Assembly (NCBI GenBank): GCA_021820025.1
Contig: JAKAEF010000001.1
Coordinates: 1-34,874 of the forward strand
DNA length: 34,874 nt
Direction: 5' to 3'
DNA from: a bacterium
GTDB lineage: Bacteria > Patescibacteriota > Microgenomatia > Levybacterales > UBA12049
The notes beneath the pieces are model-generated. The model worked only from the letters and a program-made list of their open reading frames with translations. It ran no database searches and had not been told where the DNA came from. Position 1 is the stretch's first letter; every line of letters starts with the position of its first letter. Below are positions 8,882-26,175 of this stretch, piece by piece. Position numbers and translations under genes: made by a program.

Positions 8882-9460
8882 TTATAAACCAATTTCTGAA
8901 GCAATGCTCTGCATTGCAGAAAGAGTAATGGCAATAAACTTGTCCAGAGGAATTCCTAATTTAGTTTCACATAACTTAATATTTTCTCTATCTACACCTT
9001 TAGAAAAACCAGATGTATTAAATTTTTTAAGTATAAATTCTGGTGTCATAGATGAAAGTTTTTTATCAGGATGTACAAGTGTTGAGGAGACAACCAATCC
9101 AGTCAGTTGATCAACTGTCGTAATTGCCCAATCTAAATCAGATTCCGGTTGTACATGTGTCATTGTGTAATTATGTGCTTTTATTGCATGTGCCATTGGT
9201 TCTGGAATAATATTTGGATTTTCTTCAAACAACAAAATTCCATGCTTATCTAACTTATTTTCTTTTTGTGCAACTTCGTAATCTACATCGTGAAGTAGAC
9301 CGGTAATTCCCCAAAGTTCTTCCGTCTCTGCATGATAATCACTACTGTGCAGATGCTTATAAATTCCTTTCATTGCTGCTTCAGCTGCCAAACAATGTTT
9401 AATAAGATTTTTATTTTGCAAATAAGTTGTTAATAATGTATATGCTTCTTGCCTTGTCAT
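8882..9460 (-). CDS. HD-domain metal-dependent phosphohydrolase
   Basis: 192 aa with H...HD signature residues (HCLAAEAAM ... GLLHDVDYE). Its start overlaps the lysS stop (ATGA at 9457-9460). Confidence 0.7.
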   Translation of the reverse strand: MTRQEAYTLLTTYLQNKNLIKHCLAAEAAMKGIYKHLHSSDYHAETEELWGITGLLHDVDYEVAQKENKLDKHGILLFEENPNIIPEPMAHAIKAHNYTMTHVQPESDLDWAITTVDQLTGLVVSSTLVHPDKKLSSMTPEFILKKFNTSGFSKGVDRENIKLCETKLGIPLDKFIAITLSAMQSIASEIGL

Positions 9461-11721
9461 ATATTTGCCACTACTCCAAAAGATTCAATTGTTCCCCCGC
9501 AATATTTTATTATTTTATCACAAGCTTCTTGTAAGCAAGTTTGTACTTCTTCTGGAGATATTGAATATACTCCATCAACATTAAGTAAAATATTTTTTGT
9601 ATGTAATTGAACTGCTGTTCGTTGTGCATCTCTATAATTAAAATCCATATTATATCCGCCATTTTGATCAAAATATGCAATTTCTTTTTCTGTATATGCT
9701 GTTGGTTTTTCATCTCCTAATAAAAGAATTTCTTCCCCGTTTTTTGCAAAGCGAAGAACGGTTGGAAAAGCAATAGTATCTAAATCAAATGCTCCAACAG
9801 AAACTTTGTGTTTCATAACTGTCATATTATATGCATCAACACATGTATTAATGGTATACAAACCTTTACCTAATGCAATTCTTCGCAAAAGCGCTTCAGG
9901 TGATGGTCTTCGTGAATGCCAATCAACTCCCATTTCTTTATATAATTTTCTATAACTTACTACTTCATCAAATTTTCCCAATTCTTCTGTTGTTAAATTT
10001 TGGATTGATGTTAAAAATGCTTGTTTTTCTTTTTCTAATTCTGGATTTGTTTTTTCAATTTGTACTCCTTTAATAACTGCAACTCCAACAGAGATACTTG
10101 GAAATTTTTCAAAAAGATGTTTATCTATAGAAAATATATTTGGGTTATCAAACCTTGTTATTTGTGATTCTTTCGAACTAGCGGTTGCTGTAGGTAAAGC
10201 ACTTACTTCTAAAAATCTATTTTTTACAAAATCTTTATCTAAAGAAAGAATAAGCCATGCTGCTTTTGGACCACTTGTTTTTCCAAGTAAAGAAAGATAA
10301 ATTGCACCAAAAACTTCTCTTCCAGAAATTCCCATTTCTTTTCCCCATTCGTACATATCAAATTGCAATTTTTCTGCATCGGAATAATTGGCTAATTGAT
10401 TTACAACTTTTTGTAAAAATGCTTTTTGTTTTTCTGATAATTCTTTTGCTTTTTCAGGTAATTTTTCTTGGACAACAAATTTATCTTGTTCTGGTGCATA
10501 TTTGTCTACCCAAACTTTTGCGTATGTTGCCCAATTCTCAAGACCCTGTTTTTTTATTTCTTCCTGCATGTTTGGCATTTGTACCCATTGGGCTAAAACA
10601 GAAAAACGAATACTTGGTGGTTTTTGTACTTCTCCAACTTGAGAAAGTTGAAAGGTTCTTGCTAAATCTGCATCTGATTTTCCAAAATATGCATCTGCAC
10701 ATCTCTGATATTCATCGAATAATTGTGGAATAGTATTAGGATTTGATAAATCAAAATTAATTTCACTATTAATTTTTGTTCTTACCATTAAGAATCGCAA
10801 AACTTGTGGAGGTAAAATCTCTAACATATCAGCAGCCGATGCACCAACACCTTTAGATGTAGACATTTTTTGTTTTCCTAAAATAAACCACTCATATGCC
10901 AATGGAAATGGGACAGGATAATTAAATACTCTATCAGAAATTTTTGATGCAACATCATGAGATCCACCTGCTGTCATATGATCTTTTCCTGCTCCTTCAA
11001 CTGTTACACCAATAACTTTCCATTTTGCGGGCCATTCTATTTTCCACGTTAGTTTTCCTACAATTTCTCCATCTCCACTAAATGGAGACATTTTGCCTAT
11101 AAACCCACAGCCTTTGGTAAATTTAACTTTATTCTCTTCACAGGTAAAAGTAATTTGTTCTCCATCCCAATCGGTTACTGTTGTTGTTGAAACTTTTCCA
11201 CAATTTGTGCAGTATGGTTGAAATGGATACCATTTTTCCGGCATTGTTTTTTTATAAATTTCTTCATAAATTTTTTTAATATCATCTGCTTTATCTAATG
11301 CTTCTTTAATTAACGGATTCATTTTTCCGCTTCTATATAAATCTCCTCCCCAAATAATTTCAGGTTCGCTCCCAATAGCATTAAAAACTTTTTTAAAATC
11401 TTCTGCATAATAATGGGCAAAGCTTTTATATCCTTCTTCTGGAGATGGAACTTTAAAAAGTGGCAAACCTAAATATTTTTCAAATTTTTCTTTTGGCAAA
11501 TACACAGGCAATCCATCCATTGGATCCTGGTCTTCAAAAATATAGGTATATTTTGCATTCACACCTATATCTAATAAACATTTATAAATTAAGTCATGAA
11601 TCACCACACCACGCAAACTCCCCACATGAATTTTGCCAGATGGTGTTTTAGCATCATCCACCCATTCCAGTGGTTTATTTCGTTTTTTTATTTCTAGTGC
11701 AATTTGATCTGCCCAAAACAT
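9457..11721 (-). CDS. lysS: class I lysyl-tRNA synthetase fused to a C-terminal B3/4 domain
   Basis: HIGH-type motif KIHVGSLRG. KMSKS-type motif KMSTSKG. The Cys-rich insertion CTNCGK...CEEN..GCG is typical of class I LysRS. Residues ~527-754 match the free-standing B3/4 family pattern (RRPSPEALLRRIALGKGLYTINTCVDAYNMTVMKHKVSVGAFDLD ... FNYRDAQRT). Confidence 0.9.
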   Translation of the reverse strand: MFWADQIALEIKKRNKPLEWVDDAKTPSGKIHVGSLRGVVIHDLIYKCLLDIGVNAKYTYIFEDQDPMDGLPVYLPKEKFEKYLGLPLFKVPSPEEGYKSFAHYYAEDFKKVFNAIGSEPEIIWGGDLYRSGKMNPLIKEALDKADDIKKIYEEIYKKTMPEKWYPFQPYCTNCGKVSTTTVTDWDGEQITFTCEENKVKFTKGCGFIGKMSPFSGDGEIVGKLTWKIEWPAKWKVIGVTVEGAGKDHMTAGGSHDVASKISDRVFNYPVPFPLAYEWFILGKQKMSTSKGVGASAADMLEILPPQVLRFLMVRTKINSEINFDLSNPNTIPQLFDEYQRCADAYFGKSDADLARTFQLSQVGEVQKPPSIRFSVLAQWVQMPNMQEEIKKQGLENWATYAKVWVDKYAPEQDKFVVQEKLPEKAKELSEKQKAFLQKVVNQLANYSDAEKLQFDMYEWGKEMGISGREVFGAIYLSLLGKTSGPKAAWLILSLDKDFVKNRFLEVSALPTATASSKESQITRFDNPNIFSIDKHLFEKFPSISVGVAVIKGVQIEKTNPELEKEKQAFLTSIQNLTTEELGKFDEVVSYRKLYKEMGVDWHSRRPSPEALLRRIALGKGLYTINTCVDAYNMTVMKHKVSVGAFDLDTIAFPTVLRFAKNGEEILLLGDEKPTAYTEKEIAYFDQNGGYNMDFNYRDAQRTAVQLHTKNILLNVDGVYSISPEEVQTCLQEACDKIIKYCGGTIESFGVVANI

Positions 11722-11780
11722 ATGATTTTCTTTCTGATCCTCTTATTTTACCGTATTTTGCAGGATCTAACAAATAAGTC

Positions 11781-12902
11781 TTACTTCTTCTTGGAAGTGA
11801 CAAAGAGGGTAAGGATTTGTTTATAGATTTCTTCAACAAATAAAACAGAATCTACATTGACCCATTCATTTCTGGTATGCCCGCCATTTCCTATTGGCCC
11901 AAGTGCCAAAACAGGAATATTGAGTCTATTTGCAAAAACATTTTCATCTGCAACAGAAGGTGTATAAATTGGTGTAACGTTGTTTTTTGCCAAAATTTCT
12001 TTTTGTAATATTTTTACAAACCAATGACTAAGCGGCATTTCATAACTTTCTCCATATGGCGTGTCTCTTTTTACCGGTTTTATTTCTATATCAATTTTAT
12101 TTTTTTTGGCAACAGCTTGTACTTTTTTAACAAAATCCGTACTTTTTGTTTTTGGTGTTGTAAGAAGTGAAAACTGAGCAACTGTTCTATCTGGAATTGA
12201 GAATGAATCTGTTATTCCAGAAATTGTATGAAAAACAACATCTGTTTCTCCCAGCAATGCATGTTTTGGCAGAGGAATTTGTTTGATAAGACAAAGTAAT
12301 TCTGCCATTTTTTCTATAGCATTGATTCCTTTTTTACCCTCTGCTGCATGTGCTTTTTTCCCAAACACAGTTAACTCAAACAAAATTCTTCCTTTTCTGC
12401 CAAAAACAGCACTAAATGGTTTTGTTACATCTTTTACTTGTCCACTTTCTGCTGCAACTAAAAATGCCACATCTTTTAAAAGACCAGAAGATACTAAGTC
12501 ATGTGCTCCTTTAGAAATATTTTCCTCATCAACACCGAAAATTATTTTTACAGGAAATTTATTTTTAACAGCATATTCGCCAGTTTGTAAAATTGCAGCA
12601 ATACCGCCTTTCATGTCTTCTGTTCCCAAACCCCATGCTTGTTTTCCTTTCATGGTAATTTTATACGGGTTTTTAATATCACTATCTGCCGGAACAGTAT
12701 CCATATGTCCATAAAACCCAAGGTATTTATCTGCTTTTCCATAGGTTGCAATAATGCTGTTTCGTGTTTTATCTGTTGGAACAAGTTTTACAGAAAATCC
12801 AAGCTTTTTTAAATACTCAGCAAGAAATTTACTAATTGCTGCTTCTTGTGGGAATGGGGAAGGGATTTCGACCAGTGTTTTAAATAAATCTAATGTTTTC
12901 AT
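11781..12902 (-). CDS. M20-family metallo-amidohydrolase (ArgE/DapE/CPG2-like)
   Basis: Metal and catalytic motifs are HMDTVP, GTEDMKGG, GVDEEN and a later H...E. An AAGGA Shine-Dalgarno lies inside the end of the upstream gene. The gap to the ATP-grasp stop is 2 nt. Confidence 0.85.
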   Translation of the reverse strand: MKTLDLFKTLVEIPSPFPQEAAISKFLAEYLKKLGFSVKLVPTDKTRNSIIATYGKADKYLGFYGHMDTVPADSDIKNPYKITMKGKQAWGLGTEDMKGGIAAILQTGEYAVKNKFPVKIIFGVDEENISKGAHDLVSSGLLKDVAFLVAAESGQVKDVTKPFSAVFGRKGRILFELTVFGKKAHAAEGKKGINAIEKMAELLCLIKQIPLPKHALLGETDVVFHTISGITDSFSIPDRTVAQFSLLTTPKTKSTDFVKKVQAVAKKNKIDIEIKPVKRDTPYGESYEMPLSHWFVKILQKEILAKNNVTPIYTPSVADENVFANRLNIPVLALGPIGNGGHTRNEWVNVDSVLFVEEIYKQILTLFVTSKKK

Positions 12903-12904
12903 TA

Positions 12905-14392
12905 TTATCCTTCTACTTGTACTTCAACTGTTCCTAATTGTACTCCGTGTTCTTTTTGCAAACGAGTTAGTAATTCTCGTGCTCTCTCTGGAGTTTGGGC
13001 TAATACTAACACTTTTGCATGAGGAGAGGCAATGACTTGTTCTTGCCCATCTTCATCTTCCCCAACGACTGTTCTTGAAGCAAGAACAAGCACGCCTTCT
13101 TTTGTATCTGGGTTATATACCATATCTGGTCCGATACTTTGTGCAAAATCTTCAAAACTTGCAATACCTCTATTTAGAGTAATATTGGTATTTATCCAGT
13201 GTTTTACTCCTAATTTTCTTGCTGCAAAATCTGCATACGTACTAATAATTGGTCTTGTATTTAATTCCAGTGTTCTTACAATTATTTCACCATCTGGTCT
13301 TCGAATAACAACATAATCAGGTCCTTGAATTCCATGATAGCCATTGATGTCTGCATTGTATCTGGCAGTTGCTCTAATTTGGTCATCAATTAATGCCTGA
13401 ATTGCTGGTTCTGGATAATATCTTCTACTACCAACAAAAGACCCGTTTTCTGTAATTTGTTCAAAATGTCCAAGAATTTCAACACTTCCATCTGCTCGAG
13501 ACACACCATGTGCACTACCTAACACTAATACTTCTCCCAAATTTCTTGCATCTTGTTCAATAATTAAACCTGTTCCATAAGGCGCAAAAGTATCTAGAAA
13601 CCAAGAAGCTTCAATATTTCTTTCTTTTCTTAGCTCAGCAGATTCATCAAAACGTGCATGCATTTCTTTAATTGCTTGTCTAAGCGTTGCAGCTGTTACT
13701 CTCTCAATATGCAAAACTGTATCCCCGCCAGAACCACCTGGTAATTTAACCCAAACGCCATGGGGTAAATTGCCAAACTCTGCAACAAGACCATCAATCG
13801 CGTCTTGTGTAACTTCTCCACTTACTATTCTTCCTGGCATCATATTAATACCAAATTCTGCAGCATGTTCTCGTAAATCTTGTTTGTTATTTGTTAAATC
13901 ACTACTTGGAGTATCTAAAGTTGGCATACCAAGTTGTTCTGCTTGCGCACGTACAGCATCACCAATAATTGTTGGAAGTAAGACAGAAGTTCTGGTATCT
14001 CTTCGCATACTCCCATCATTAACTCGCGCTGCCATTCTTTCCAAAACATCACCATGTGGGAATGGATAAGGATTTGCTAAATCTCCATTTTCAACTCTAT
14101 GTGGCACTTCAATTAATTGACCTGGTTGTAAAATACCAATTTGTTCATAATGCTCTCGTAAACCTCCAAAAAGTTTTGGGGTAATAGCTACTTCTCCAGG
14201 ACCTGCAACAAACAAAGATAAATACCCTAAGTACGCATCACCATACGGTTCTGGAAGAATCGTAAATCTTTCTGGATTAACAAAATTTGCAGCGTGAGTT
14301 GGCACTCGATCAATATGATCTGCGCCATTTCTTTGTCCATTAACCGTTAATGCACCCAATGCGGGTGCTTCTTGTCTTGCTTGCATTGCCAT
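12905..14392 (-). CDS. ATP-grasp family carboxylate-amine ligase with an N-terminal pre-domain, substrate unknown
   Basis: 495 aa. ATP-grasp signatures occur in canonical order: VWVKLPGGSGGDTV (Lys plus Gly-rich loop), LIIEQDA (hinge) and RTLELNTRP (E-x-N Mg site). About 200 aa precede the first motif and about 110 aa follow the last. Composition is K-poor and R-rich. Confidence 0.75.
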   Translation of the reverse strand: MAMQARQEAPALGALTVNGQRNGADHIDRVPTHAANFVNPERFTILPEPYGDAYLGYLSLFVAGPGEVAITPKLFGGLREHYEQIGILQPGQLIEVPHRVENGDLANPYPFPHGDVLERMAARVNDGSMRRDTRTSVLLPTIIGDAVRAQAEQLGMPTLDTPSSDLTNNKQDLREHAAEFGINMMPGRIVSGEVTQDAIDGLVAEFGNLPHGVWVKLPGGSGGDTVLHIERVTAATLRQAIKEMHARFDESAELRKERNIEASWFLDTFAPYGTGLIIEQDARNLGEVLVLGSAHGVSRADGSVEILGHFEQITENGSFVGSRRYYPEPAIQALIDDQIRATARYNADINGYHGIQGPDYVVIRRPDGEIIVRTLELNTRPIISTYADFAARKLGVKHWINTNITLNRGIASFEDFAQSIGPDMVYNPDTKEGVLVLASRTVVGEDEDGQEQVIASPHAKVLVLAQTPERARELLTRLQKEHGVQLGTVEVQVEG

Positions 14393-14424
14393 AAGAATTA
14401 CATGTTTGACTTAAAACCTTGTAA

Positions 14425-14452
14425 ATTATACCTATTTATTGAAGCGTGTCAA
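14425..14452 (-). promoter_or_regulatory. perfect consensus sigma70-type promoter upstream of the ATP-grasp ligase gene
   Basis: The minus strand reads TTGACA (14452-14447), a 16-nt spacer, then TATAAT (14430-14425). The ATG lies 32 nt downstream of the -10 box, at 14392. Confidence 0.6.
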
Positions 14453-14469
14453 CTATTTATAAGAATTTG

Positions 14470-14489
14470 ACAAATTTAACCAAATTTGT
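14470..14489 (-). terminator. AT-rich hairpin after the HDAC-type gene (weak terminator candidate)
   Basis: The minus strand reads ACAAATTT-GGTT-AAATTTGT, a perfect 8-bp stem starting 8 nt after the stop. The downstream tail is only moderately T-rich. Confidence 0.3.
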
Positions 14490-14496
14490 TTGTTTT

Positions 14497-15450
14497 TTAA
14501 CAAAAAGAAAGCCCTTTAACCAAACTCCAAGCTATATCTCCTAAATCTGAGACAAAATACCCTCCTTCTTGGATAACCAAGGTGGGAAGTTGTAATGAGG
14601 CAATTTGCAAACCAATTTCTTTATAAAATGGAATTGTAAGTTTAAATGCTGCAATCGGATCTTTAATGTAGGTATCAAAACCTGCAGAAATAACTAAGAA
14701 ATTTGGATTAAATTTTTTAATATTTTTTATAGCTTGTTGTAATGTTTTTTTATACAAGATTTCTGATGCATCTACAGGAAGTGGATAATTAATATTAAAT
14801 CCGACTCCATCTGCAATTCCCGTTTCTTCTTTAAATCCAGTTATATAAGGATATTTTTCCCTTGGATCTGCATGCAGAGAAACATATAAAATATCATCTC
14901 TGTCATAAAACATTTGTTGAGTTCCATTACCGTGGTGGTAATCAATATCTAAAATTGCAACTTTCCCTTTTGCAGATAAATATTCTGCGGCAACTGCAGC
15001 ATTATTTATATAACAATATCCACCCATATTATATGCACCGGAATGATGTCCAGGAGGTCTGCACAAAGCATATATTAATTTTTCACCGTTTTCTAAAAGT
15101 TCTGCTCCGGTTAATGCAATATCTGCAGATTCTTTTGCTGCAACAAATGTATCTTTTGTCATTGGGGCGTAGGTATCTGTTGTAAAATATGATGCAAAAA
15201 AATTGTCTGTTGGTTTTAAGGATTTAGATTTATTTTTTAAAAATTCTATGTAATTCTTATGATGTACTTTTTCTACATGAGAAATTGGGAATGATTTTGG
15301 TGCAATAAATTCTCCTGCGTTTTCTTGTCTAAATTTTTTAGCAATAATTTCTATTCTCTCTGGAACCTCTGCGTATGGAGCTTGTTGCATGTCATATACT
15401 TCGTATGCTGGATTATGTAATTTGTGTTTGGATGAATAAATAATTTTCAT
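14497..15450 (-). CDS. HDAC-family Zn-dependent deacylase (acetylpolyamine amidohydrolase / AcuC-like)
   Basis: The full set of family motifs is present: CRPPGHH, ILDIDYHHGNGTQ, SAGFDTY and QEGGY. The gap to the upstream orphan gene is 1 nt. Confidence 0.9.
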   Translation of the reverse strand: MKIIYSSKHKLHNPAYEVYDMQQAPYAEVPERIEIIAKKFRQENAGEFIAPKSFPISHVEKVHHKNYIEFLKNKSKSLKPTDNFFASYFTTDTYAPMTKDTFVAAKESADIALTGAELLENGEKLIYALCRPPGHHSGAYNMGGYCYINNAAVAAEYLSAKGKVAILDIDYHHGNGTQQMFYDRDDILYVSLHADPREKYPYITGFKEETGIADGVGFNINYPLPVDASEILYKKTLQQAIKNIKKFNPNFLVISAGFDTYIKDPIAAFKLTIPFYKEIGLQIASLQLPTLVIQEGGYFVSDLGDIAWSLVKGLSFC

Positions 15451-15451
15451 A

Positions 15452-16630
15452 TTAATTTGTCCCAGTTAATTCTAACACTGTTTGGACTGCTGATCTAGAG
15501 TACATTTGTTTTCTTCTTTCTTCATTAAATGGTAAATACATCCACAAAAATGATCTATAAAGAGTTGGTAGTTCGCGTCTTCCATCGTCTACTTTTACGT
15601 TGCCAAACAACGTTTGAAGAGGAAAATCTTCTCTCCCTGTTATTTCTTCATCTAATGGTCTTGGGATAGTTAGCCCGCTTTTTCTAGCATTAATTGGAGC
15701 TCCATTTACTGTATTACATTCTGCAAAAATTACTGGATTTCTATTTCCACAATCATGCTCTACTTGAGCAATTAAATGAATAATTGCTGCTTCCATTGAT
15801 TCATTTCGTGGAACAAGAGACAAAAACTCTGTTAATTCAACAAGCCGCACACTTTCTCCGTTACCAATAGGTAAATCTAATGCTTCAGCCTTTGCAGCAG
15901 CGACAAGATTTCCATTATTATCAGTTATTGCAGACAACCATTCATTTTTTGCTTCTCTTGGCAATTCTCTTTCTGCTTCTAATCTCTGTTGCATTGCTGC
16001 CACATCACCAGTTTGCCAGCCAAATCTAATTCCCCACCAGTATTCCAATTGTTGTTCCAGAGTTTGTCCCTCATCATTTCTAACATCTGCATCTACCATA
16101 TGATGGTACGAGTATTTTGATGCTATGGCACGCTCTGTTCTTGTTACCGAATGTATTGTATCTTTAGCTAACACTTCTGCTGTTTTTGCTGGAATTTCAC
16201 TCGGTGTTATAGGAGTTTGGCGCTGTTCTCCGTTTTGTCCGAAAACGACATAATACAGTTGAGATTCCCCAAGATGAGCAGGAACAGCAACAGCAACTTC
16301 TAACGTAGAACATGCATCGGGACTTGTAGACGACATATTAACAAGTGCTTCTTGTGTTACTAACGCTCGCACCATTGTCCTACCAACTTCAGGATGAGGC
16401 AAAAGTTCTCGTAAACCATGTACGCCATTAACAAGCTCCGATAACTCTGCAGCACCTGCAATAGCATGATCTGGGGTATACATAAGCCTGTCAAAACTAC
16501 GTAGATCAAGTCCCAATGCGCCGGTACTAGTTGCAGCATCAATCCGCCTATCTGCAACCTCCCGCATTTGGGCTTGTAATTGTTCTCTTATTGGAGCTGT
16601 AGATTGTTGTGCTAATTCTTGTTGAACCAT
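15452..16630 (-). CDS. orphan 392-aa protein, possibly with a degenerate GNAT-like core in the C-terminal half
   Basis: The ATG at 16630 is preceded by GAAGGAAGGA-N5 and by a TTGACT-16-TACAAT promoter. Composition is K-poor and R-rich. I recognised no catalytic motif. Residues ~225-345 show a GNAT-like strand/helix order (VIFAECNTVNGAPINARKSGL). Confidence 0.7.
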   Translation of the reverse strand: MVQQELAQQSTAPIREQLQAQMREVADRRIDAATSTGALGLDLRSFDRLMYTPDHAIAGAAELSELVNGVHGLRELLPHPEVGRTMVRALVTQEALVNMSSTSPDACSTLEVAVAVPAHLGESQLYYVVFGQNGEQRQTPITPSEIPAKTAEVLAKDTIHSVTRTERAIASKYSYHHMVDADVRNDEGQTLEQQLEYWWGIRFGWQTGDVAAMQQRLEAERELPREAKNEWLSAITDNNGNLVAAAKAEALDLPIGNGESVRLVELTEFLSLVPRNESMEAAIIHLIAQVEHDCGNRNPVIFAECNTVNGAPINARKSGLTIPRPLDEEITGREDFPLQTLFGNVKVDDGRRELPTLYRSFLWMYLPFNEERRKQMYSRSAVQTVLELTGTN

Positions 16631-16662: not shown

Positions 16663-16690
16663 ATTGTACCTGAAGCTAATTCAAAGTCAA
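16663..16690 (-). promoter_or_regulatory. promoter for the orphan-392/HDAC operon
   Basis: The minus strand reads TTGACT (16690-16685), 16 nt, then TACAAT (16668-16663). The GAAGGAAGGA Shine-Dalgarno follows at ~16645-16636. Confidence 0.5.
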
Positions 16691-16738: not shown

Positions 16739-17386
16739 ATGATCACAGTACCTGAGGCTACACGCAAAGTTATAGAACGTTCACGCTACCTGGCAGAGGC
16801 TATGAGTAAGGGGCTTATTAATTACTCTTCTTTAGCCCGCTATATTAAGCCAGAACTTGAACAAATGCTTGTTAAAAATGTCAGTGAATCATCTATTATT
16901 ATGGCTTTAAAAAGGCTTGAACCTTATTTTCAACCAAAATATAAACATGTTACTGTTTTCCAAAATCCTCCAGAAATGATTGTGAGATCAAATCTAGTTG
17001 AAATAACTGTTGCGAATTCTGAAGAAATGACAAAAAAATTACCTCAAATTATGGCAGTTTACGCGAATCAGCAAAAATACTACTTTACCATTACAGAAGG
17101 AGTATCAGAAACAACTATTATTGCAAGCCATGATTTGTTTGATAAAATCAAAACAATTTTAAATGGAGAAAAAGTAGTTGAAACATATGTTGATCTTTCT
17201 TCTATCACAATTAGACTCCCTAAAGAAGTTTTAGAATCTCCCGGAATTTTTTACTTTTTCTTAAAAAGTCTGGCATGGGAGGGGATAAATATTATAGAAA
17301 TCGTTTCAACCTATTTGGAATTTACCATAATTTTAGAAGATAAAAACGTAAACAAAGCATTTGCAATTCTTAAATCTCTTTTTTAA
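16739..17386 (+). CDS. ACT-domain protein with a helical N-terminus (putative ligand-sensing regulator)
   Basis: The C-terminal PGIFYFFLKSLAWEGINIIEIVSTYLEFTIILEDKNVNKAFAIL is an ACT-like beta-alpha-beta-beta-alpha-beta unit. The gene is divergent from the orphan/HDAC operon. Confidence 0.6.
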   Translation: MITVPEATRKVIERSRYLAEAMSKGLINYSSLARYIKPELEQMLVKNVSESSIIMALKRLEPYFQPKYKHVTVFQNPPEMIVRSNLVEITVANSEEMTKKLPQIMAVYANQQKYYFTITEGVSETTIIASHDLFDKIKTILNGEKVVETYVDLSSITIRLPKEVLESPGIFYFFLKSLAWEGINIIEIVSTYLEFTIILEDKNVNKAFAILKSLF

Positions 17387-20118
17387 ATTTGTTTTTCTTG
17401 CAATTTTTGGTGTTCTTTCATTAAGCAAAAATCAGAAACAATAGTGACATTATGTTCTCTTGCATAATTTTCTGCTTTTGTATTTCTTACTCCTTCTGGT
17501 AACCAAATTGTTTTTATTCCTTTTTTAATTGCCTCTTCAACATGTGGAAATACTTCTTCTGATCTTCTATAAATTGCAACCATATCTACTGACTTTTCAA
17601 TTTCTAATAAATTTTTATATGCTTTTTCTCCTAACACTTCTCCAATTGCTGGATTAACAGGAACAATAGAAAATCCTTTTGATTGTAAATAAATACCAAC
17701 CTTATGACTGTATCTGTCTGGATCCTGAGAAATTCCAACAATTGCAATTGTTTTTGCTTTTTGCAAAACATTTAATTGGATTGCATCATCTAATGGATTA
17801 TTTTGTATATCAAAATGCCATTCTTCTAATTCTATTGGATCAACTCCATATTCTGTTATGTAAGCCAAATGTTCTTCCAAAGCATTTTTGTAATGATCAA
17901 TTATTTTTTTTGCTTTTTCTAAAGAAATTACTTTTTGTTTTTCCATTTTTTCAATTATTTCTATTGCTAAATGATATCTACTTGTTTTATTTCTCATATG
18001 CATATCAAAAGGTGTTGTTGTCCCACCCAATTCTAAATATCCATGAACAGAAAATCTTTGAGGATTTTTTATGTGGAAAAATATTGACTCCAAATCTTCA
18101 GGATATCCATGATAATTTACAATAACAGGTTTATCGGAAGTAAAATATTTTTCTGCATTTGGAATCTGATTTTTTTGTTGATCTCGTCCTGACAAGCGAA
18201 CAATATTTACAAAGCGAATCTTAATTTCCGGTGCTACAACTTTTACCATTTCTAAAGCAGCCATTGCTTCCTTTGTTACATAGTCCCCAACTCCCGCAAT
18301 AACAATGTCAGGGTTTTCATCACTTGCAAATTCCCAAATTAAAAGTCCGTCTTCCAAAGATTTTTGTGCTTGTTGTAACGTAAGCCATCTTGGTTCTATA
18401 GTTTTACCAGCAACAATTGCATTAATACCATTTGTTGATGCTAATGTTTCGTCTAAAACTGCAAGCATACTATTGTCATCAACAGGGAAATAAACTTTTA
18501 TTTTGTCATCATGTTTTTCTAAAAGTGAACTGACAAATGATGGATTCTGGTGCGTAAATCCATTGTGTTCTTGTCTCCATAAAACTGAAGAAAGCATGTA
18601 ATTTATAGATGCATATGGTCCCCGCCATGAAAGAGTTCTGGCAACTTTTAAAAACTTTTCATATTGATGCGTCATGCTGGAAAAAATTTGTGCAAATGCT
18701 TCATAAGTTGTAAATACAGCATGTCGTCCTGTTAAAATATATCCTTGGGCTAACCCATGTAAATTAGTTTCTGATAACATTTCCATAACTCTTCCATCTT
18801 GTGTCATATCTTTATCGTCTTTACTAATTGGCCAAACAAATGCTCTGCTTGTCTCTTTAAAAACAGTATCCAGTCTGTTGGAGTATGTTTCGTCAGGAGA
18901 CATAAGACGAAAATTATTTTTATTTAATGCAAAAACTTGTTGCAAATATTCACCAGCTTTTTTCATGCTGTTAGATCCCAATTTCCCGGGAACTTCAAAT
19001 TTTGTTTCTAAATTTTCTGTTTTTGGAAGAATTAATTTTTTAAAAAAATTTTTACTGTATGCATGAGGATTATTTCCAATTCTCAACTTTTCTTCAGGAA
19101 GAATATTAAAAATTTCTTTTGAAAATCCTTTATCTTTAGAAAAAACATCATTAAACTTATAAGAAGTTAGCCAATCTTCAATTGCCTCTAACTCATATTC
19201 ATCTTTTCTTGCATTTGGAGCAACAACTTGATGTGCTAAAATATTTCCTTCAATTTTTTTCTTATTTAATTCTTTTATTCCAGTCCATCCTTTTGCTGTC
19301 TGTAAAATAATCATTGGAAATTTAGGAGAAACAATTTTTTTGCCTGAACGCGCATCTTTTTGAATTTTTTTAATTTTTGCTAAACAAGTATCTAATGTTT
19401 TTACCATGTCTTCATAAATATGTTCTCCTGTAACAAAAAATGGTTCATATCCATATCCTTCAAAAAGATCTGATAACTCTTTATTAGACATGCGACCAAA
19501 GATTGTTGGACCAGAAATTTTATAGCCATTCACGTGCAATATAGGCAAAACTGCACCATTTATTGCAGGATCTATTAATTTATTTATATGCCAGCTAGAA
19601 GCAATAGGTCCAGTTTCTGCTTCTCCATCTCCAATCATACAAACAGCTAATAAATCTGGATTATCTAAAACAGCTCCATATGCAGTTCCTAAGGAGTAAC
19701 CTAACTCTCCACCTTCTAAAATTAATCCGGGCGCCTCAGGATTACTGTGACTTGATACACCATATGGCCAACTAAAAATTTTTGAAACCCAGGCAATCCC
19801 TTTTTCATCAAGAGTTGCTTCTTTGTAGTATTTCTCTAGTGTTCCTTCTAAGAATAAATTTGCCTGAAGTGCAGGAAATCCATGACCAGGTCCTAAAACA
19901 AACATGGTAGAAACTTCATGTTTTTTTACAAAATATTGTAAATTTGCATAAACAAAATTTATCCCTGGACATGTTCCCCAATGTCCAAACAAGCGTTGTT
20001 TAATATCTTTGCTAGATAGTTTTTCAGATAATAAATAATTATCTTTTAAATAAATTTGTGTTACTGTCAAATAATTTGCAGCACGAACATACGCTTTAAT
20101 TGCAGAAATATCATTCAT
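17383..20118 (-). CDS. xfp: xylulose-5-P/fructose-6-P phosphoketolase fused to a C-terminal CoA-binding (YccU/CoA_binding_2-like) domain
   Basis: Phosphoketolase motifs GHWGTCPG, EGGELGYSL and GDGEAETGP (ThDP site) are present. Length is 911 aa. The last ~139 aa (KTIAIVGISQDPDRYSHKVGIYLQSKGFSIVPVNP...VDMVAIYRRSE...IKTIWLPEG) match the small Rossmann CoA-binding family. Confidence 0.88.
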   Translation of the reverse strand: MNDISAIKAYVRAANYLTVTQIYLKDNYLLSEKLSSKDIKQRLFGHWGTCPGINFVYANLQYFVKKHEVSTMFVLGPGHGFPALQANLFLEGTLEKYYKEATLDEKGIAWVSKIFSWPYGVSSHSNPEAPGLILEGGELGYSLGTAYGAVLDNPDLLAVCMIGDGEAETGPIASSWHINKLIDPAINGAVLPILHVNGYKISGPTIFGRMSNKELSDLFEGYGYEPFFVTGEHIYEDMVKTLDTCLAKIKKIQKDARSGKKIVSPKFPMIILQTAKGWTGIKELNKKKIEGNILAHQVVAPNARKDEYELEAIEDWLTSYKFNDVFSKDKGFSKEIFNILPEEKLRIGNNPHAYSKNFFKKLILPKTENLETKFEVPGKLGSNSMKKAGEYLQQVFALNKNNFRLMSPDETYSNRLDTVFKETSRAFVWPISKDDKDMTQDGRVMEMLSETNLHGLAQGYILTGRHAVFTTYEAFAQIFSSMTHQYEKFLKVARTLSWRGPYASINYMLSSVLWRQEHNGFTHQNPSFVSSLLEKHDDKIKVYFPVDDNSMLAVLDETLASTNGINAIVAGKTIEPRWLTLQQAQKSLEDGLLIWEFASDENPDIVIAGVGDYVTKEAMAALEMVKVVAPEIKIRFVNIVRLSGRDQQKNQIPNAEKYFTSDKPVIVNYHGYPEDLESIFFHIKNPQRFSVHGYLELGGTTTPFDMHMRNKTSRYHLAIEIIEKMEKQKVISLEKAKKIIDHYKNALEEHLAYITEYGVDPIELEEWHFDIQNNPLDDAIQLNVLQKAKTIAIVGISQDPDRYSHKVGIYLQSKGFSIVPVNPAIGEVLGEKAYKNLLEIEKSVDMVAIYRRSEEVFPHVEEAIKKGIKTIWLPEGVRNTKAENYAREHNVTIVSDFCLMKEHQKLQEKQI

Positions 20119-20130
20119 AATTTATTTTCT

Positions 20131-21885
20131 TTAATAATCCTCAAGAGTAGAGGTATCACCTTCAGGAAGACCTAATTCCCTAGATTTTAATAAGCGGCGC
20201 ATAATTTTGCCCGAGCGGGTTTTAGGAAGTTTATCTATAAATTCTATTTCCCGTGGATATGCATGGCCTGCCAAATGTTGTTTTACATACGCCATAATTC
20301 TCTTTTTTGTTTCTTCATTTTTTTCAACGCCTGGTTTTACAACAACAAAGGCTTTAATAATTTCTCCACGTAACTCATCTGGTTTTCCAATAACTCCTGC
20401 TTCTATAACATCTTCATGTTCGACAAGTGCACTTTCAACTTCAAACGGACCTACACGTTCTCCAGATGTTTTTATAACATCATCTGCTCGTCCAACAAAC
20501 CAAAAATACCCATCTTTATCTTTAAATGCTTTATCTCCAGACAAATACCATCCATTTCTAAAGTATGAATCAAATTTTTCTTTATTTCCCCAAATTTGTT
20601 TCATTAAAGAATAAATTGTTTCCGGCTTTAGTGCTAAATGTCCTTCTTCTCCAACAGGTACTTCTTTCCCATCTTCATCAATTACTGCTGCGATAACACC
20701 TGGGAGTGGCTTTCCCATACTGCCTGGCCTAACATCCATAACAGAATAATTTGTTACGGTTATTGATCCTTGTTCTGTTTGCCACCACGTATCATGGAAT
20801 GGTAATCCAAATGCTTCTAACCCCCACCAAATTGCTTCAGGATTTAATGGTTCACCAACACTGGCCAAAAATCGAAGATTTGATAAGTTATATTCCTTTG
20901 GAGAAACAGGAGATCCCATAAGCATTCTAATTGCAGTTGGGGCTGTATACCAAACAGTTACTTGGTAATCTTGCAAAACTTTGTACCAATTTTCGGGAGA
21001 AAATCTTCCTTCAAAAATTACAGAAGTTGCTCCCAAACCAAACGGACCTAATGCTCCATAGACAACTCCTGTTACCCAGCCTAAATCCGCTGTACACCAA
21101 TAAATATCATCTTCGTGTACATCTAAAACAAATTTTGTTGTTACCATTGCCTGTACAATATCTCCATGTGCATGCACAACACCCTTTGGTTTTCCTGTTG
21201 TTCCAGAGGTATAGAGCATGTAAGAAAGATCTTCTTTTTGCATATGAGCAATTGCAAAATCTGCAGAAGCTTTTTCCATTTCATGTTTATAATAAATAAG
21301 ATTTTCTCCTTTGGGTTGATCAACAGATCCTCTTTCTACAATAATTACTTTTTCAAGTGCAGGTAAATCTTTCCAGATTTTTTGAATTCTTGGAAAAAGA
21401 GTTGCATTGGTAACAACAACCTTTGCTCCACTATCTAATAAGCGATCCATTAATGCCATTTCCATAAATGCGGAGAATAATGTTCCTGCAATTGCACCAA
21501 GTTTTAAGATGCCAAAAAAAACAACTAATCGCTCAGGAATTGTTGGTAAGAAAATAAAAACTCTATCTCCTTTTTGTACTCCATGCAAATCTAAAACATT
21601 AGCAAATTTATTTGTTAAATCTTTTAATTGGCCATAGGTATATGTTTCTTTTTCACCAGTTGCACTTTCAAATAAAAGTGCATTTTTAGAAGCACTTTTT
21701 CCGATAGCATGTCTGTCAATTGCAATATAAGAAGCATTTAAAGTTCCGTCTTCAAAAAAATCTAAATATTCTTTTTCTGCTTTTTTCCATGTAAACTCTT
21801 TATAGGTTTTTTCGTAATCAGAAAGGTTTGGTTTTTTAACAAATTTTTTGGGGTCTTTGTGAATTATATTTGCACCTGTATTCAT
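20131..21885 (-). CDS. acs: AMP-forming acetyl-CoA synthetase / acyl-CoA synthetase
   Basis: The AMP-binding motif is YTSGTTGKPKGV, and the A10 motif is LPKTRSGKIMRR. I prefer the start at ATG 21885. The listed TTG start at 21933 lies inside a TTGACA -35 box. Confidence 0.88.
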   Translation of the reverse strand: MNTGANIIHKDPKKFVKKPNLSDYEKTYKEFTWKKAEKEYLDFFEDGTLNASYIAIDRHAIGKSASKNALLFESATGEKETYTYGQLKDLTNKFANVLDLHGVQKGDRVFIFLPTIPERLVVFFGILKLGAIAGTLFSAFMEMALMDRLLDSGAKVVVTNATLFPRIQKIWKDLPALEKVIIVERGSVDQPKGENLIYYKHEMEKASADFAIAHMQKEDLSYMLYTSGTTGKPKGVVHAHGDIVQAMVTTKFVLDVHEDDIYWCTADLGWVTGVVYGALGPFGLGATSVIFEGRFSPENWYKVLQDYQVTVWYTAPTAIRMLMGSPVSPKEYNLSNLRFLASVGEPLNPEAIWWGLEAFGLPFHDTWWQTEQGSITVTNYSVMDVRPGSMGKPLPGVIAAVIDEDGKEVPVGEEGHLALKPETIYSLMKQIWGNKEKFDSYFRNGWYLSGDKAFKDKDGYFWFVGRADDVIKTSGERVGPFEVESALVEHEDVIEAGVIGKPDELRGEIIKAFVVVKPGVEKNEETKKRIMAYVKQHLAGHAYPREIEFIDKLPKTRSGKIMRRLLKSRELGLPEGDTSTLEDY

Positions 21886-21904
21886 AATTTGGTAGATCGT
21901 GGTT

Positions 21905-21933
21905 ATAGTAACAAGGTTTCTTTTATCTGTCAA
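21905..21933 (-). promoter_or_regulatory. promoter for the acs-xfp transcription unit
   Basis: The minus strand reads TTGACA (21933-21928), 17 nt, then TACTAT (21910-21905). The ATG lies 19 nt further on, at 21885. Confidence 0.45.
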
Positions 21934-21998: not shown

Positions 21999-22529
21999 TT
22001 ATAACTGTCTAACTAATGTAGATACACCAGGAACATATTGAGATCTAACCTGAAATCCTCGATGCAACAATGCTTGTTCTGATACTGCATTTTCTGGTTG
22101 CGCCTTTATTGTTGAATATCCTGCTTCTTTTGCAGCAAAACAAAGCCGCTCTACTAATTGACTCATTATACCTATTTGTCTAAATTTAGGAGCAATATAA
22201 ATATCTTCTAATACTGCTTCTGTTCTTGGCTCTCCAGCGATTGCACCTGAATAAAATCCATATCCTACAATATTTCCTCTGTTATCTCTGACAAGTTCTA
22301 TTAAATAATCTCTCTGATCTTCTATAAAACTACCAATTAATGCAGCTGTAGCATCTGTTTCTTGATGTAAAGTTGCTTTCCTACGAAAACGTTCACCCGC
22401 TGCTCGAGCATGTTCTCCTGCCCAATTAGTTCTCAATCTACCAATTTCCGTTACTACTCTTTGCGTTTCTGGATCTATATCTCTAGATTGTAACTGTGAA
22501 TAATCAATTATTCCGTATCTTTCGCGCAT
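21999..22529 (-). CDS. GNAT-family N-acetyltransferase (K-poor/R-rich)
   Basis: The GNAT core is NIVGYGFYSG...VLEDIYIAPKFRQIGIMSQLVERL...AKEAGYSTIKA...A...LHRGF. The first ATG is at 22529; the listed 22550 start is TTG. This is the last gene after coaBC and pantoate kinase. Confidence 0.8.
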   Translation of the reverse strand: MRERYGIIDYSQLQSRDIDPETQRVVTEIGRLRTNWAGEHARAAGERFRRKATLHQETDATAALIGSFIEDQRDYLIELVRDNRGNIVGYGFYSGAIAGEPRTEAVLEDIYIAPKFRQIGIMSQLVERLCFAAKEAGYSTIKAQPENAVSEQALLHRGFQVRSQYVPGVSTLVRQL

Positions 22530-22543
22530 ATTTGTATTATATA

Positions 22544-23350
22544 TTAACAAATTAAAAATTGTTGAGACCCTGCAAATGGTATATTACTAAACACTCCATT
22601 TCCAAGCATTATCATAGAAGCAACTCCGCCTTTATTTTCTATTTCTTGAATTGTTTGTATAACTTCTTGATCTTGCAATAACCCACTAGTCGTAGCAAAT
22701 TCTTTTGAAATAGTAATGACATTTTCTAATGTTATTTTTTTCTCTTTATAAAGAGCATCAATTTTTTCAATTGCTGTTTTTCCAGCAACATCAATTTTTT
22801 CTTTTATTACTGGATTTTGAATAACAGATTTTGTTTCAAGTGTACTAAAAAATCGACAATAAATTGGAATATTTGCTATTGGTAAATGTATAACTTTAAA
22901 CAGATAACTAGGATCTTTTTTCAGTAAAAATCCTCCAAAATATTCATTTGTTATATCTCCCAGCCCTGTTCCGTTTTCTACTTCTGCAATATGAGAAAGC
23001 TTTGCCAACTCTATTTTTCCTTTTTGTAAATTAAGTAAATCATTTATTGCATATGCTGTTGCAAGTGTTGCTGCCCCGCTTAATCCAAATCCTCCGCCAA
23101 GTGGTAAATCAGAAATAATTGAGACTTCTAATGGTATGTCTGTTAACTTTTTTATAACAGATAAAACGGGACCAATATGTATTTCTTTTTTGTTTAAAAA
23201 AATTTTTGTATTTGCAGCTTTTGCAACTGTTGCCGTTGCTCCCTTAGATATTGTAAATCCAACACCCGTTGAACCTGTTGTTTCAGGTGTTTCTCCTTTA
23301 TGAATTCTAAAAATACAAGAAATATTTCCGGGAGCAAATGCTGTTGTCAT
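22544..23350 (-). CDS. GHMP-family kinase, archaeal-type pantoate kinase candidate
   Basis: The GHMP phosphate-binding loop is DLPLGGGFGLSGAATLA. The HIAEVENGTGLGDI motif fits my memory of the archaeal pantoate kinase family. Its start overlaps the coaBC stop (ATGA at 23347-23350). Confidence 0.6.
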   Translation of the reverse strand: MTTAFAPGNISCIFRIHKGETPETTGSTGVGFTISKGATATVAKAANTKIFLNKKEIHIGPVLSVIKKLTDIPLEVSIISDLPLGGGFGLSGAATLATAYAINDLLNLQKGKIELAKLSHIAEVENGTGLGDITNEYFGGFLLKKDPSYLFKVIHLPIANIPIYCRFFSTLETKSVIQNPVIKEKIDVAGKTAIEKIDALYKEKKITLENVITISKEFATTSGLLQDQEVIQTIQEIENKGGVASMIMLGNGVFSNIPFAGSQQFLIC

Positions 23351-24543: not shown

Positions 24544-24552
24544 AATAGGGGT

Positions 24553-24582
24553 ATTGTATCAATTTGTAAGTATAAGAGGCAA
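24553..24582 (-). promoter_or_regulatory. extended -10 promoter for the coaBC / pantoate kinase / GNAT operon
   Basis: The minus strand reads TTGCCT (24582-24577), 18 nt, then TGA-TACAAT (-10 at 24558-24553). The ATG at 24543 is 9 nt after the -10 box. Confidence 0.45.
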
Positions 24583-24583
24583 A

Positions 24584-25582: not shown

Positions 25583-25598
25583 ACAGGGGTTAACAGAC

Positions 25599-26075
25599 TT
25601 ATTCTACGGAGACAACAGTATATGCAACTTTACCAGCTGGTGCTTCTACTTCTATTTTCTCTCCAATTGCTTTACCCATTAATGCTTTACCAAGAGGAGA
25701 CTGGTCAGAAATTTTTTGTTGTGCAGGGTCTGCTTCCCATTCGCCAACTACAGTATATACTTGTTTTTTGCCACCAACATGTAAAGTTACAGTTGCCCCA
25801 AGTATTACTGTTTTTTTACCACCAGATTTTCCTGGTTTTTCTTCAATTATTTCTACCTGTTTGAGCATTTCTTCAAGCTCATCAATTCTTCCATCAATAA
25901 AAGATAATTCTTCTCGTGCAGCTTGATATTCTGCATTTTCAGAAAGATCACCTTGATTTCGTGCTTGAGAAACTGTCTCCAAAACTTCTGGTCTTCGGAC
26001 TTTTGCTAATTGGTCATACTCTTTTTTAAGAGTTTCCAAACCTTCTTTTGTTAAGTATATTTTTTTATCTGGCAT
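25599..26075 (-). CDS. greA: transcription elongation factor GreA
   Basis: ATG 26075 gives MPDKKIYLTKEGLETLKKEYDQL...RPEV...ARNQGDLSENAEYQAAREE, the canonical GreA N-terminus. The listed 26123 start is TTG and lies in the leader. Confidence 0.93.
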   Translation of the reverse strand: MPDKKIYLTKEGLETLKKEYDQLAKVRRPEVLETVSQARNQGDLSENAEYQAAREELSFIDGRIDELEEMLKQVEIIEEKPGKSGGKKTVILGATVTLHVGGKKQVYTVVGEWEADPAQQKISDQSPLGKALMGKAIGEKIEVEAPAGKVAYTVVSVE

Positions 26076-26091
26076 AGTTTTTAAAGAAAAT

Positions 26092-26160: not shown

Positions 26161-26175
26161 TAACCTCTAGTACTA

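Follow-up and report, generated by a model that had tools for sequence, protein, structure and literature searches.

Cassette structure and distribution

The genes considered here lie in a 34,874-nt stretch of DNA (contig JAKAEF010000001.1 of assembly GCA_021820025.1, positions 1 to 34,874; the window refers to this whole stretch) from the metagenome-assembled genome of a bacterium of the Levybacterales, within the Patescibacteriota. Four minus-strand open reading frames (ORFs) form two coupled pairs, each composed of a putative maker of amide bonds followed by a putative amide-bond breaker. An initial interpretation made from the DNA alone, the sequence-only reading, had described these ORFs together with junctions of 1 and 2 nt, a 104-nt spacer and a perfect consensus promoter; all of these are present, the ORFs at the positions it gave, and every motif it quoted for the ligase, HDAC-type and M20 proteins is found in the translated ORFs. 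The region consists of two independent, separately promoted two-gene cassettes that fill a slot of variable content, flanked by an ACT-like gene and by lysS, the gene for lysyl-tRNA synthetase (LysRS). The features are as follows.

15452..16630, minus strand: 392-aa GNAT-like protein, putative N-acyltransferase, maker of cassette 1 (Acetyltransf_9 in relatives, AlphaFold2 (AF2), Foldseek)
14497..15450, minus strand: 317-aa HDAC-family Zn deacylase, breaker of cassette 1 (Pfam Hist_deacetyl, 2e-71)
12905..14392, minus strand: 495-aa predicted ATP-grasp ligase, structurally of the PGM1/BesA/LdmS type, maker of cassette 2 (AF2 and Foldseek, invariant residues)
11781..12902, minus strand: 373-aa M20 metallohydrolase of the ArgE/DapE/LysK type, breaker of cassette 2 (Pfam Peptidase_M20 and M20_dimer)
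16663..16690, minus strand: promoter-like site before the GNAT-like gene, TTGACT-16-TACAAT (10/12 consensus match)
14425..14452, minus strand: sigma-70-type promoter of the ligase-M20 cassette, TTGACA-16-TATAAT (12/12 consensus match)
11745..11773, minus strand: promoter-like site of lysS, TTGTTA-17-TAAAAT (sequence scan and alignment)
9457..11721, minus strand: class I LysRS (lysS) with a C-terminal B3_4 domain (Pfam tRNA-synt_1f, 2e-94, and B3_4)
16739..17386, plus strand: 215-aa ACT-like protein, divergently transcribed (ACT_7, E 0.0098, weak)

The GNAT-like and HDAC genes meet at TAA-T-ATG and the ligase and M20 genes at TAA-TA-ATG, with a Shine-Dalgarno sequence (GAAGGA) lying within the 3′ end of the ligase gene; the 104-nt spacer separates the HDAC gene from the ligase gene. 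Loci outside the window are labelled L001, L002 and so on, each being one related genomic stretch. The promoter block upstream of the ligase gene is near-identical in the window, L001 and L048 despite differing upstream genes, and alignment shows that the promoter-like site of lysS is kept in the window, L001, L049 and L003, with HDAC or M20 genes upstream alike. A search of the coding strand detected no intrinsic terminator, and Rfam models revealed no riboswitch or T-box near either cassette.

A survey of the neighbourhoods of homologues indicates that each pair is conserved and tightly coupled, as had been supposed from the window. The GNAT-like family was sampled at 34 distinct loci, 33 of them informative for the downstream gene, and an HDAC gene follows in 32 of the 33, at a spacing that extends from an overlap of a few bases to ~240 nt and is 1-60 nt in most loci. 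The sole exception is L038 (1737-3499), where the GNAT-like gene precedes an unrelated 226-aa ORF. For cassette 2, an M20 gene lies directly after the ligase gene at each of the seven distinct ligase loci, even where ligase identity is 32-40%, and the spacing varies between a 1-nt overlap (L049) and a short gap. The pairing of both gene couples is far beyond chance. The maker-then-breaker logic of the sequence-only reading fits both pairs, with the ATP-grasp ligase and the GNAT-fold 392-aa protein as the putative makers.

The informatively named carriers of the GNAT-HDAC cassette are Patescibacteria, namely Daviesbacteria, Levyibacteriota and Saccharibacteria. These symbionts are abundant and for the most part uncultured, and their genomes are very small, so that a module conserved among them likely matters to them. 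Cultivable Saccharibacteria carry the GNAT-HDAC module as well (L023, L025, L027), which makes genetics and biochemistry feasible. Four metagenome-assembled genomes titled 'uncultured Gammaproteobacteria' (L015, L016, L022, L024) have the same type of GNAT-HDAC locus at 37-41% GC and are probably mislabelled Patescibacteria bins; in L015 and L016 a class I LysRS gene directly follows the HDAC gene, and in L016 it is of the long, B3_4-type form.

The two cassettes are separable from each other. Related genomes whose LysRS proteins are 78-87% identical show four arrangements: both pairs together, as in the window; GNAT-HDAC alone directly before lysS (L003); ligase-M20 alone between the ACT-like gene and lysS (L001/L002, and L048 with L049); and ligase-M20 at another site, flanked by the genes for ribosomal protein S7 and a peptidyl-prolyl isomerase (PPIase), in L004, which shares its sample of origin with L003. 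About 30 GNAT-HDAC loci are without ligase-M20, and ligase-M20 occurs without GNAT-HDAC in L001, L004 and L048/L049. The distant L005 has, in order, the ligase and M20 genes, a GNAT-like gene reduced to its last third, and the HDAC gene. The pairs have thus been brought together twice independently and in opposite orders, in the window and in L005, and for this reason their juxtaposition is probably not pure chance. The sequence-only reading had proposed that finding the pairs apart in nearly all relatives would point to chance juxtaposition; they are indeed mostly apart, but the two independent joinings in opposite orders stand against that conclusion.

The same observations bear on the pathway that this reading implied, in which one molecule would be handled by both makers and both breakers in turn. 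Adjacency of the pairs in the window and, in opposite order, in L005 is what would be expected of such a pathway. However, the pairs have separate promoters, they lie apart in most relatives, each cassette occurs alone at the loci listed above, and the GNAT-like gene of L005 is cut down to its last third. The idea of four genes as one set does not survive this distribution, by which a single pathway is already largely refuted, and we regard it as highly improbable.

The predicted makers and their partner hydrolases

The 392-aa protein has no match in Pfam, NCBIfam or PDB sequences, a profile of its family matched nothing among PDB sequences, and a word-based homology search with that profile returned only 9 proteins. 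Exhaustive phmmer searching, by comparison, finds 142 representative relatives (clusters at 50% identity) of ~350 aa and 25-36% identity, so the protein is the orphan it was first taken for only to word-based and Pfam searches. Acetyltransf_9 is matched by 12 of 40 aligned relatives (best E 4.9e-7) in a region equivalent to about residues 175-270 of the 392-aa protein, and relative P0031 reaches 23.6 bits over residues 149-244 against a Pfam GNAT cut-off of 25. An AF2 model made with the relatives' alignment as input (predicted local distance difference test, pLDDT, 90.9; predicted template-modelling score, pTM, 0.89) has GNAT-fold acyltransferases as its top-ranked Foldseek matches in the PDB, at E values up to ~6e-3. 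The best are Naa60 and a Brucella ribosomal-protein-alanine N-acetyltransferase, with probability 1.0 and target TM scores of 0.62-0.65, and GNA1 and SpeG are also among them; the matches span ~205 columns, which we place on the C-terminal half. The model therefore predicts a C-terminal GNAT-fold domain at about residues 174-365. The N-terminal half of the model has no GNAT match in Foldseek, and the domain it contains (about residues 40-170) carries an invariant STGxLG..R..R motif. In GNAT enzymes the loop that binds the acyl-CoA pyrophosphate lies between β4 and α3 and reads Q/R-x-x-G-x-G/A. Most relatives have a Gly-containing loop after a conserved LVESTEW strand, and in the subfamily of the window the β4-α3 loop is ~6 residues shorter and without Gly (LVELTEFLSLVPRNESM). 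On the strength of the modelled fold the 392-aa protein is a plausible amide maker and a putative N-acyltransferase. Direct comparison shows that it is not homologous to the maker of cassette 2.

The assignment of its 317-aa partner as an HDAC-type hydrolase is upheld by the Pfam match and by the motifs RPPGHH at 131, DIDYHHGNGTQ at 168, GFD at 257 and QEGGY at 294. Its closest PDB sequences are acetylpolyamine amidohydrolases (APAHs; 9gkz, 8e-76, and 3q9b, 3e-69), and the aligned cores are highly similar (237-259 bits). The deacylase has 13 residues (74-86) against 36 in MrApaH (74-109), so that ~23 residues of the polyamine-specificity (L2) loop are deleted, including the positions of Arg95 and Glu106, and the short segment is common to all 16 Patescibacteria orthologues examined. 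The L2 loop, also termed PSL, drives dimerisation of APAHs and restricts their active site to polyamines (PMC11532494). The alignment thus describes the deacylase as an APAH-like core without the polyamine-specificity loop. We found no published account of this module in Patescibacteria in the literature, and the GNAT-like family is a previously unannotated and newly delimited one, locked to this loop-less HDAC-type deacylase.

These relationships raise the question of whether the cassettes handle polyamines. The GNAT-like enzyme would acetylate a polyamine in the manner of SpeG or PaiA and the APAH-like enzyme would regenerate it, while the ATP-grasp and M20 proteins would make and break an ordinary dipeptide or an aminoacyl-polyamine and the position of lysS would be inherited gene order devoid of functional significance. 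The nearest solved relatives of the deacylase, the presence of SpeG among the GNAT fold matches, and the acidity of both makers (pI 5.0-5.1), as expected for binders of polycations, are in keeping with such a function, and phevamine biosynthesis reportedly includes ATP-grasp enzymes that join amino acids to polyamines. Yet the loop that confers polyamine specificity is deleted in every one of the 16 orthologues, two unrelated classes of LysRS lie near the pair in three arrangements, and polyamine handling leaves the purge of lysine from the makers, described below, unexplained. We consider it unlikely.

The predicted ligase carries the motifs WVKLPGGSGGDTV at 214, LIIEQDA at 276 and RTLELNTRP at 373 and belongs to a rare family: only 6 relatives, at 31-93% identity, were found among 5.8 billion clustered proteins, and a metagenome scan with the ligase alignment found none. 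No Pfam family matched at E<=0.01, comparison with PDB sequences gave nothing usable, and the only sequence-model match is NCBIfam BesA, at 16.2 bits against a cut-off of 750. An AF2 model obtained with the alignment of the six relatives (pLDDT 72.9, pTM 0.74) matches 292 PDB chains at E<=1e-3, and all 50 listed are ATP-grasp enzymes; over the full length Foldseek returns PGM1 (3wvr, 4e-15), 8ynd, LdmS (7r8q, 6e-13) and BesA (8yi6, 6e-13). Residues K216, GSGGD 220-224, E279, D359, E376, N378 and R380 are invariant across six family members down to 31% identity, and by analogy K216, in a WVK strand, would be the ATP-contacting Lys. The PGM1 match and the invariant catalytic residues agree with the ATP-grasp signatures recognized at the outset, and the model points to an amide ligase of the amino-acid/peptide-ligase type that falls in no curated family and whose activity is putative.

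The M20 amidohydrolase assignment of the 373-aa protein likewise finds support in Pfam (Peptidase_M20 and M20_dimer), and the motifs HMDTVP, EDMKGG and DEEN stand at 66, 95 and 125. Its best NCBIfam models are of the DapE/ArgE subfamily, every one of them under its cut-off (LysK model NF003367, for example, scores 83 bits against 363), and its PDB matches include ArgE (7rsf), DapE (3ic1) and LysK (5xoy). These three enzymes release the diamino acids ornithine, diaminopimelate and lysine, respectively.

Lysine depletion, lysyl-tRNA synthetase and the wider neighbourhood

Both makers are strikingly poor in lysine. In the window the GNAT-like protein contains 2.0% Lys and 7.4% Arg and the ligase 2.0% Lys and 7.1% Arg, against 8-12% Lys in neighbouring proteins at the same GC content at third codon positions (GC3), with 12% in the M20 protein. 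K/(K+R) averages 0.20 over 19 GNAT-like proteins (range 0.03-0.39) and 0.29 over 7 ligases; among 180 background ORFs the median is 0.67 and the 5th percentile 0.38, and the partner HDACs and M20s average 0.63 and 0.83. Lys occurs only once among the 356 residues of one GNAT-like orthologue and is absent from the first 148 of the window protein, and no column of the GNAT-like alignment has a conserved Lys; in the ligase family the invariant lysines are K170 (TNNK motif), K216 and K460. At Arg positions of the GNAT-like family Lys makes up 8.4% of mismatches versus 33.4% in the partner HDACs of the same genomes, Arg in the makers being replaced by Gln, Gly or Glu instead. Recent transfer from a GC-rich donor was considered as a cause and rejected, given that GC3 and Arg codon usage of the makers are host-like and that the depletion persists across 25-30% identity. 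The depletion is the product of selection against lysine rather than a relic of recent transfer.

Lysine-poor proteins of other kinds were encountered in these loci. The adjacent class II LysRS of one lineage is lysine-poor, with K/(K+R) of 0.29-0.33 (L018, 891-2997; L020, 3401-5507; L029, 2483-3814), and in L018 and L020 a lysine-poor protein of 211-216 aa and no known family precedes it; the class II enzymes of L044 and L045 are not lysine-poor. L021 contains a T-box leader (10883-11173, plus strand, 100 bits) with an apparent UUA specifier before the gene of an unrelated, lysine-poor 351-aa protein that has a phosphoribosyltransferase-like (PRT-like) motif. This T-box is the only one found near the loci, and as its specifier is not a lysine codon it gives no support for lysine-responsive control. 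L020 has a group I intron match (113-305, plus strand, 90 bits) ~1 kb upstream of a tRNA gene.

The most frequent neighbour of cassette 1 is LysRS. The window enzyme is identified as class I by TIGR00467 (362 bits, cut-off 148). Adjacency was counted over 25 informative loci, in 15 of which a LysRS gene of class I or class II flanks the GNAT-HDAC pair. The class I gene starts 20-57 nt after the HDAC gene in 9 loci and, in the window, after the inserted ligase-M20 cassette; class II LysRS, scoring above its NCBIfam cut-off, takes the same downstream position in L029 and L044, lies one gene away in L045, and in L018 and L020 immediately precedes the GNAT-like gene. Because two unrelated LysRS classes occupy the neighbourhood in these three arrangements, a link through lysine or Lys-tRNA is more likely than one through a single synthetase protein. 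The class I LysRS of the window is 754 aa long and has an extra C-terminal B3_4 domain, which is known from the PheRS β subunit; orthologues in L008, L011, L012 and L039 are ~500 aa and without it.

Makers and breakers also differ in their rate of change. Across the same genomes the makers are 25-32% identical and the breakers 50-60%, the makers evolving faster, and in three cases a decayed maker lies beside an intact breaker: the ligase gene of L001/L002 is a pseudogene, broken by a frameshift and an in-frame stop, and adjoins an M20 gene at 90% identity, and L005 and L028 retain only GNAT remnants before an intact HDAC gene. This asymmetry recalls effector or toxin-immunity pairs, in which the maker would be a harmful modifier, self-directed or delivered to a host bacterium, and the hydrolase its antidote, persisting like an orphan immunity gene. 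The ligase-M20 cassette, which is present or absent by genome and has moved between loci, would fit as well. Lysine depletion would then shield a delivered effector from lysine-directed tagging such as pupylation in actinobacterial hosts, and lysine deserts are reportedly prevalent in bacteria with pupylation-dependent degradation (PMC10665810). Several results count against this explanation: PADLOC defence-protein models match none of six proteins, neither maker has a tblastn match on plasmids, the N-termini, on inspection, show no evident signal peptide, and there is no linked secretion gene. The GNAT-HDAC cassette has a housekeeping neighbourhood and occurs in several lineages of Patescibacteria rather than sporadically, and most carriers are not Saccharibacteria. 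Immunity proteins, moreover, usually co-evolve with their toxins, whereas here the breakers are the conserved partners. We consider an effector or toxin function very improbable.

Two further genes of the window belong to the context of the cassettes.

21999..22550, minus strand: 183-aa small GNAT (Acetyltransf_1, 5e-9)
20131-21933, minus strand: acetate-CoA ligase, Acs (NF003313, 805 bits, cut-off 729)

The small GNAT is a third lysine-poor protein (2.2% Lys, 10.3% Arg), and its orthologue in L048 is lysine-poor too; none is found in L001. It is unusual that lysine has been so strongly selected out of three unrelated acyl-transfer enzymes of a single region, and the effect is easy to test. 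The small GNAT gene overlaps the end of a GHMP-kinase gene and lies 66 nt upstream of the Acs gene, and its product may be an AcuA/Pat-like regulator of Acs. Just upstream are genes of the CoA-biosynthesis type (22544-27168, minus strand), encoding the GHMP kinase, Dfp/CoaBC and a CTP_transf_like+DUF359 fusion. A phosphoketolase (17383-20118, minus strand; XFP_N/XFP/XFP_C) has a C-terminal CoA_binding_2 domain, a fusion that recurs in L001, L014 and L048 and, as a full-length tblastn match suggests, in L039. The small GNAT, Acs, the CoA-binding phosphoketolase and the CoA-type genes constitute an acetyl-CoA-themed neighbourhood.

The divergent ACT-like protein has a weak resemblance to an aspartokinase ACT domain (3l76, E 0.038). 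Its homologues adjoin the GNAT-like gene or the ligase gene in L001, L003, L021, L033, L035 and L048, and it recurs in divergent orientation in lineages with only ~30% identity; judged from these matches, an amino-acid-binding regulator is possible. In L026 the homologue adjoins another M20-like gene. A stand-alone homologue of the MprF/LysX C-terminal lysyl-transferase (24584-25582, minus strand; LPG_synthase_C, 2.8e-59), without the membrane part and not lysine-poor, is the second lysine- or Lys-tRNA-related gene in the window. The LysRS adjacency had prompted the idea that the 392-aa protein is itself a tRNA-dependent lysyl transferase built as a Fem/MprF-like tandem of GNAT domains. This is unsupported, the N-terminal half giving no GNAT match, and it is weakened further by the MprF-C homologue, which is unrelated to the GNAT-like protein and has a normal lysine content. 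Near the end of the window a GAF-ANTAR protein (33826-34521, plus strand) is a putative RNA-binding antiterminator regulator.

The acetyl-CoA theme invites comparison with the acuABC switch. In this scheme the GNAT-like enzyme would acetylate the catalytic lysine of a target protein, classically acetate-CoA ligase, the loop-less HDAC would reverse the modification, and lysine depletion would prevent auto-acetylation of the acetyltransferase; ligase-M20 would be an unrelated dipeptide module. Within 6 kb the window has a GNAT and HDAC pair, an ACT-like gene, Acs, and a lysine-poor GNAT directly upstream of Acs, and in L014, L027 and L039 Acs/XFP genes precede the pair at a distance of 1-3 genes, Acs being its immediate neighbour in L027. 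Without the polyamine-specificity loop, the active site should become accessible to peptides (PMC11532494), and lysine depletion most naturally fits an enzyme that acts on protein lysines. The sequence-only reading had dismissed the AcuABC layout as different. The proximity of Acs, the small GNAT and the ACT-like gene deserves more weight than it was given. The distribution is less favourable to such a switch: only about 4 of the 25 informative lineages have Acs close to the pair, versus 15 with LysRS, Acs/XFP genes remain in L001 and L048, where GNAT-HDAC is absent, and the swap of LysRS class at the same position speaks against a protein-specific target. The deacylase is APAH/HDAC6-like rather than AcuC-like, and the GNAT-like protein has ~350-390 aa with an extra domain. 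An acuABC-like switch is, on balance, an unlikely alternative.

A proposed lysine-masking function and its relation to known systems

The reading that we favor, with a probability of roughly 0.4, is that the cassettes reversibly mask free lysine or small lysine derivatives and that avoidance of self-acylation lies behind the purge of lysine from the makers. The first enzyme of each cassette would form an amide on an amino group, the maker of cassette 1 using an acyl-CoA, probably acetyl-CoA, and the maker of cassette 2 an ATP-activated amino-acid carboxylate, and the second enzyme would hydrolyse the amide made by its partner. Four features suggest that this amino group is of the lysine type, with free lysine or a small derivative of it as the most likely bearer and a peptide lysine as the alternative: the LysRS adjacency independent of class, the type of the M20 hydrolase, the loss of the polyamine-specificity loop, and the lysine-poor makers. 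Masking and release would buffer the lysine pool that feeds LysRS. Patescibacteria are generally without amino-acid biosynthesis, and the proteins of the window organism are ~9-10% lysine. The makers would have exchanged lysine for Arg, Gln or Glu and so escaped acylation by their own lysine-directed activity. Breakers alone could be useful for the salvage of ready-made acyl-amines, and we propose that this is why they persist where makers decay.

A number of observations weigh against this proposal. Some unrelated proteins in these loci are also lysine-poor (the class II LysRS of one lineage, the PRT-like protein and a T2SSE ATPase), so depletion is not exclusive to acyl-transfer enzymes, and to our knowledge the known lysine or polyamine acetyltransferases have not been reported as lysine-poor. 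Lysine storage alone leaves unexplained why it is the maker, and not the breaker, that is poor in lysine. The nearest solved relatives of the deacylase act on polyamines, 10 of the 25 informative loci have no LysRS on their flanks, and part of the class I LysRS adjacency may be inherited synteny rather than selection. The nearby acetate-CoA ligase, phosphoketolase with its CoA-binding domain and second, small GNAT fit an acuABC-like protein-acetylation switch, Acs being 2 genes away from the pair in the window and Acs with phosphoketolase being near it in about 4 of the 25 informative lineages. Finally, the shortened β4-α3 loop renders acyl-CoA use uncertain for the GNAT-like subfamily of the window.

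A bolder view takes lysine content itself as the sensor. Makers with almost no Lys codons would keep being translated when Lys-tRNA is scarce, and the translationally coupled downstream breakers (8-12% Lys) would stall, so that the maker/breaker ratio would set the acylation of a lysine-related metabolite or of protein lysines according to lysine supply. We consider this improbable; if true, an attenuation-like switch would be encoded in the amino-acid make-up of entire enzymes, next to lysS in an auxotroph with a high demand for lysine. The converse idea of starvation-proof enzymes that release lysine was rejected, since the hydrolases, which would release it, are lysine-rich. The depletion may reveal either that lysine-directed enzymes protect themselves in this way or that a shortage of lysine is answered through protein composition.

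The relation of these cassettes to characterized systems differs for each component. The APAHs (cluster 4 deacylases; Mycoplana ramosa ApaH, 3q9b, and Pseudomonas sp. ApaH, 9gkz) are the closest sequences to the deacylase and share all of its Zn and catalytic motifs, whereas the window protein and its orthologues are without the L2 loop. The acuABC operon of Bacillus subtilis comprises the GNAT AcuA, the CBS/ACT protein AcuB and the HDAC-family AcuC and adjoins acsA. Cassette 1 resembles it in the union of a GNAT with an HDAC-family deacylase, in the ACT-like gene beside them and in the nearby acetate-CoA ligase, but differs in the type of deacylase, in a GNAT-like protein with an extra N-terminal domain without a Pfam match, where AcuA is a much shorter single-domain GNAT, and in having LysRS rather than Acs as the neighbour conserved across lineages.

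For the ligase, the pheganomycin peptide ligase PGM1 (3wvq/3wvr), the Streptomyces protein 8ynd and the propargylglycine-glutamate ligase BesA (8yi6) are the best full-length structural matches (E 4e-15 to 6e-13), and their ATP-grasp catalytic residues are kept in the window protein. Identities are 14-18%, however, and these enzymes belong to actinomycete natural-product clusters, unlike the window ligase, whose only partner is an M20 hydrolase and whose host is a small-genome symbiont. The LysX/LysK-LysW pathway also combines an ATP-grasp ligase that masks an amino group with an M20 hydrolase that releases lysine, and LysK is among the M20 matches. Its ligase is RimK-like, that of the window PGM1-like, and LysW-type lysine or arginine biosynthesis was rejected because no LysW carrier, kinase, reductase or aminotransferase (LysZ/LysY/LysJ) was found among the Pfam-scanned ORFs of the window; the early exclusion of this pathway is therefore sound.

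The closest parallel to cassette 2 is found in the Firmicutes. We know of no report of lysine depletion in LdmS, the staphylococcal ligase that is among the structural matches of the window ligase (Foldseek E 6e-13, TM 0.62, ~15% identity). The published hmrA/ldmS operon of Staphylococcus encodes an M20D peptidase and an ATP-grasp L-aspartate-L-methionine ligase (PMC9486568), and a precedent thus exists for a gene set that the sequence-only reading could not map onto any pathway it knew. Both are two-gene operons in which an ATP-grasp amino-acid ligase and an M20 metallopeptidase are adjacent and co-directional. The hydrolase gene comes first in staphylococci and is downstream in the Patescibacteria, the hydrolase is of the M20D type there and of the ArgE/DapE type here, and the staphylococcal operon is under sulfur-amino-acid regulators (S-box, CymR, CodY), in contrast to the cassette of the window, with no riboswitch or T-box found. 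The physiological sense of coupling a maker to a breaker is a puzzle in the staphylococcal operon too. The ligase-M20 cassette is a rare accessory analogue of hmrA/ldmS, and with it the ligase-plus-peptidase type of operon, known from staphylococci, gains a second example.

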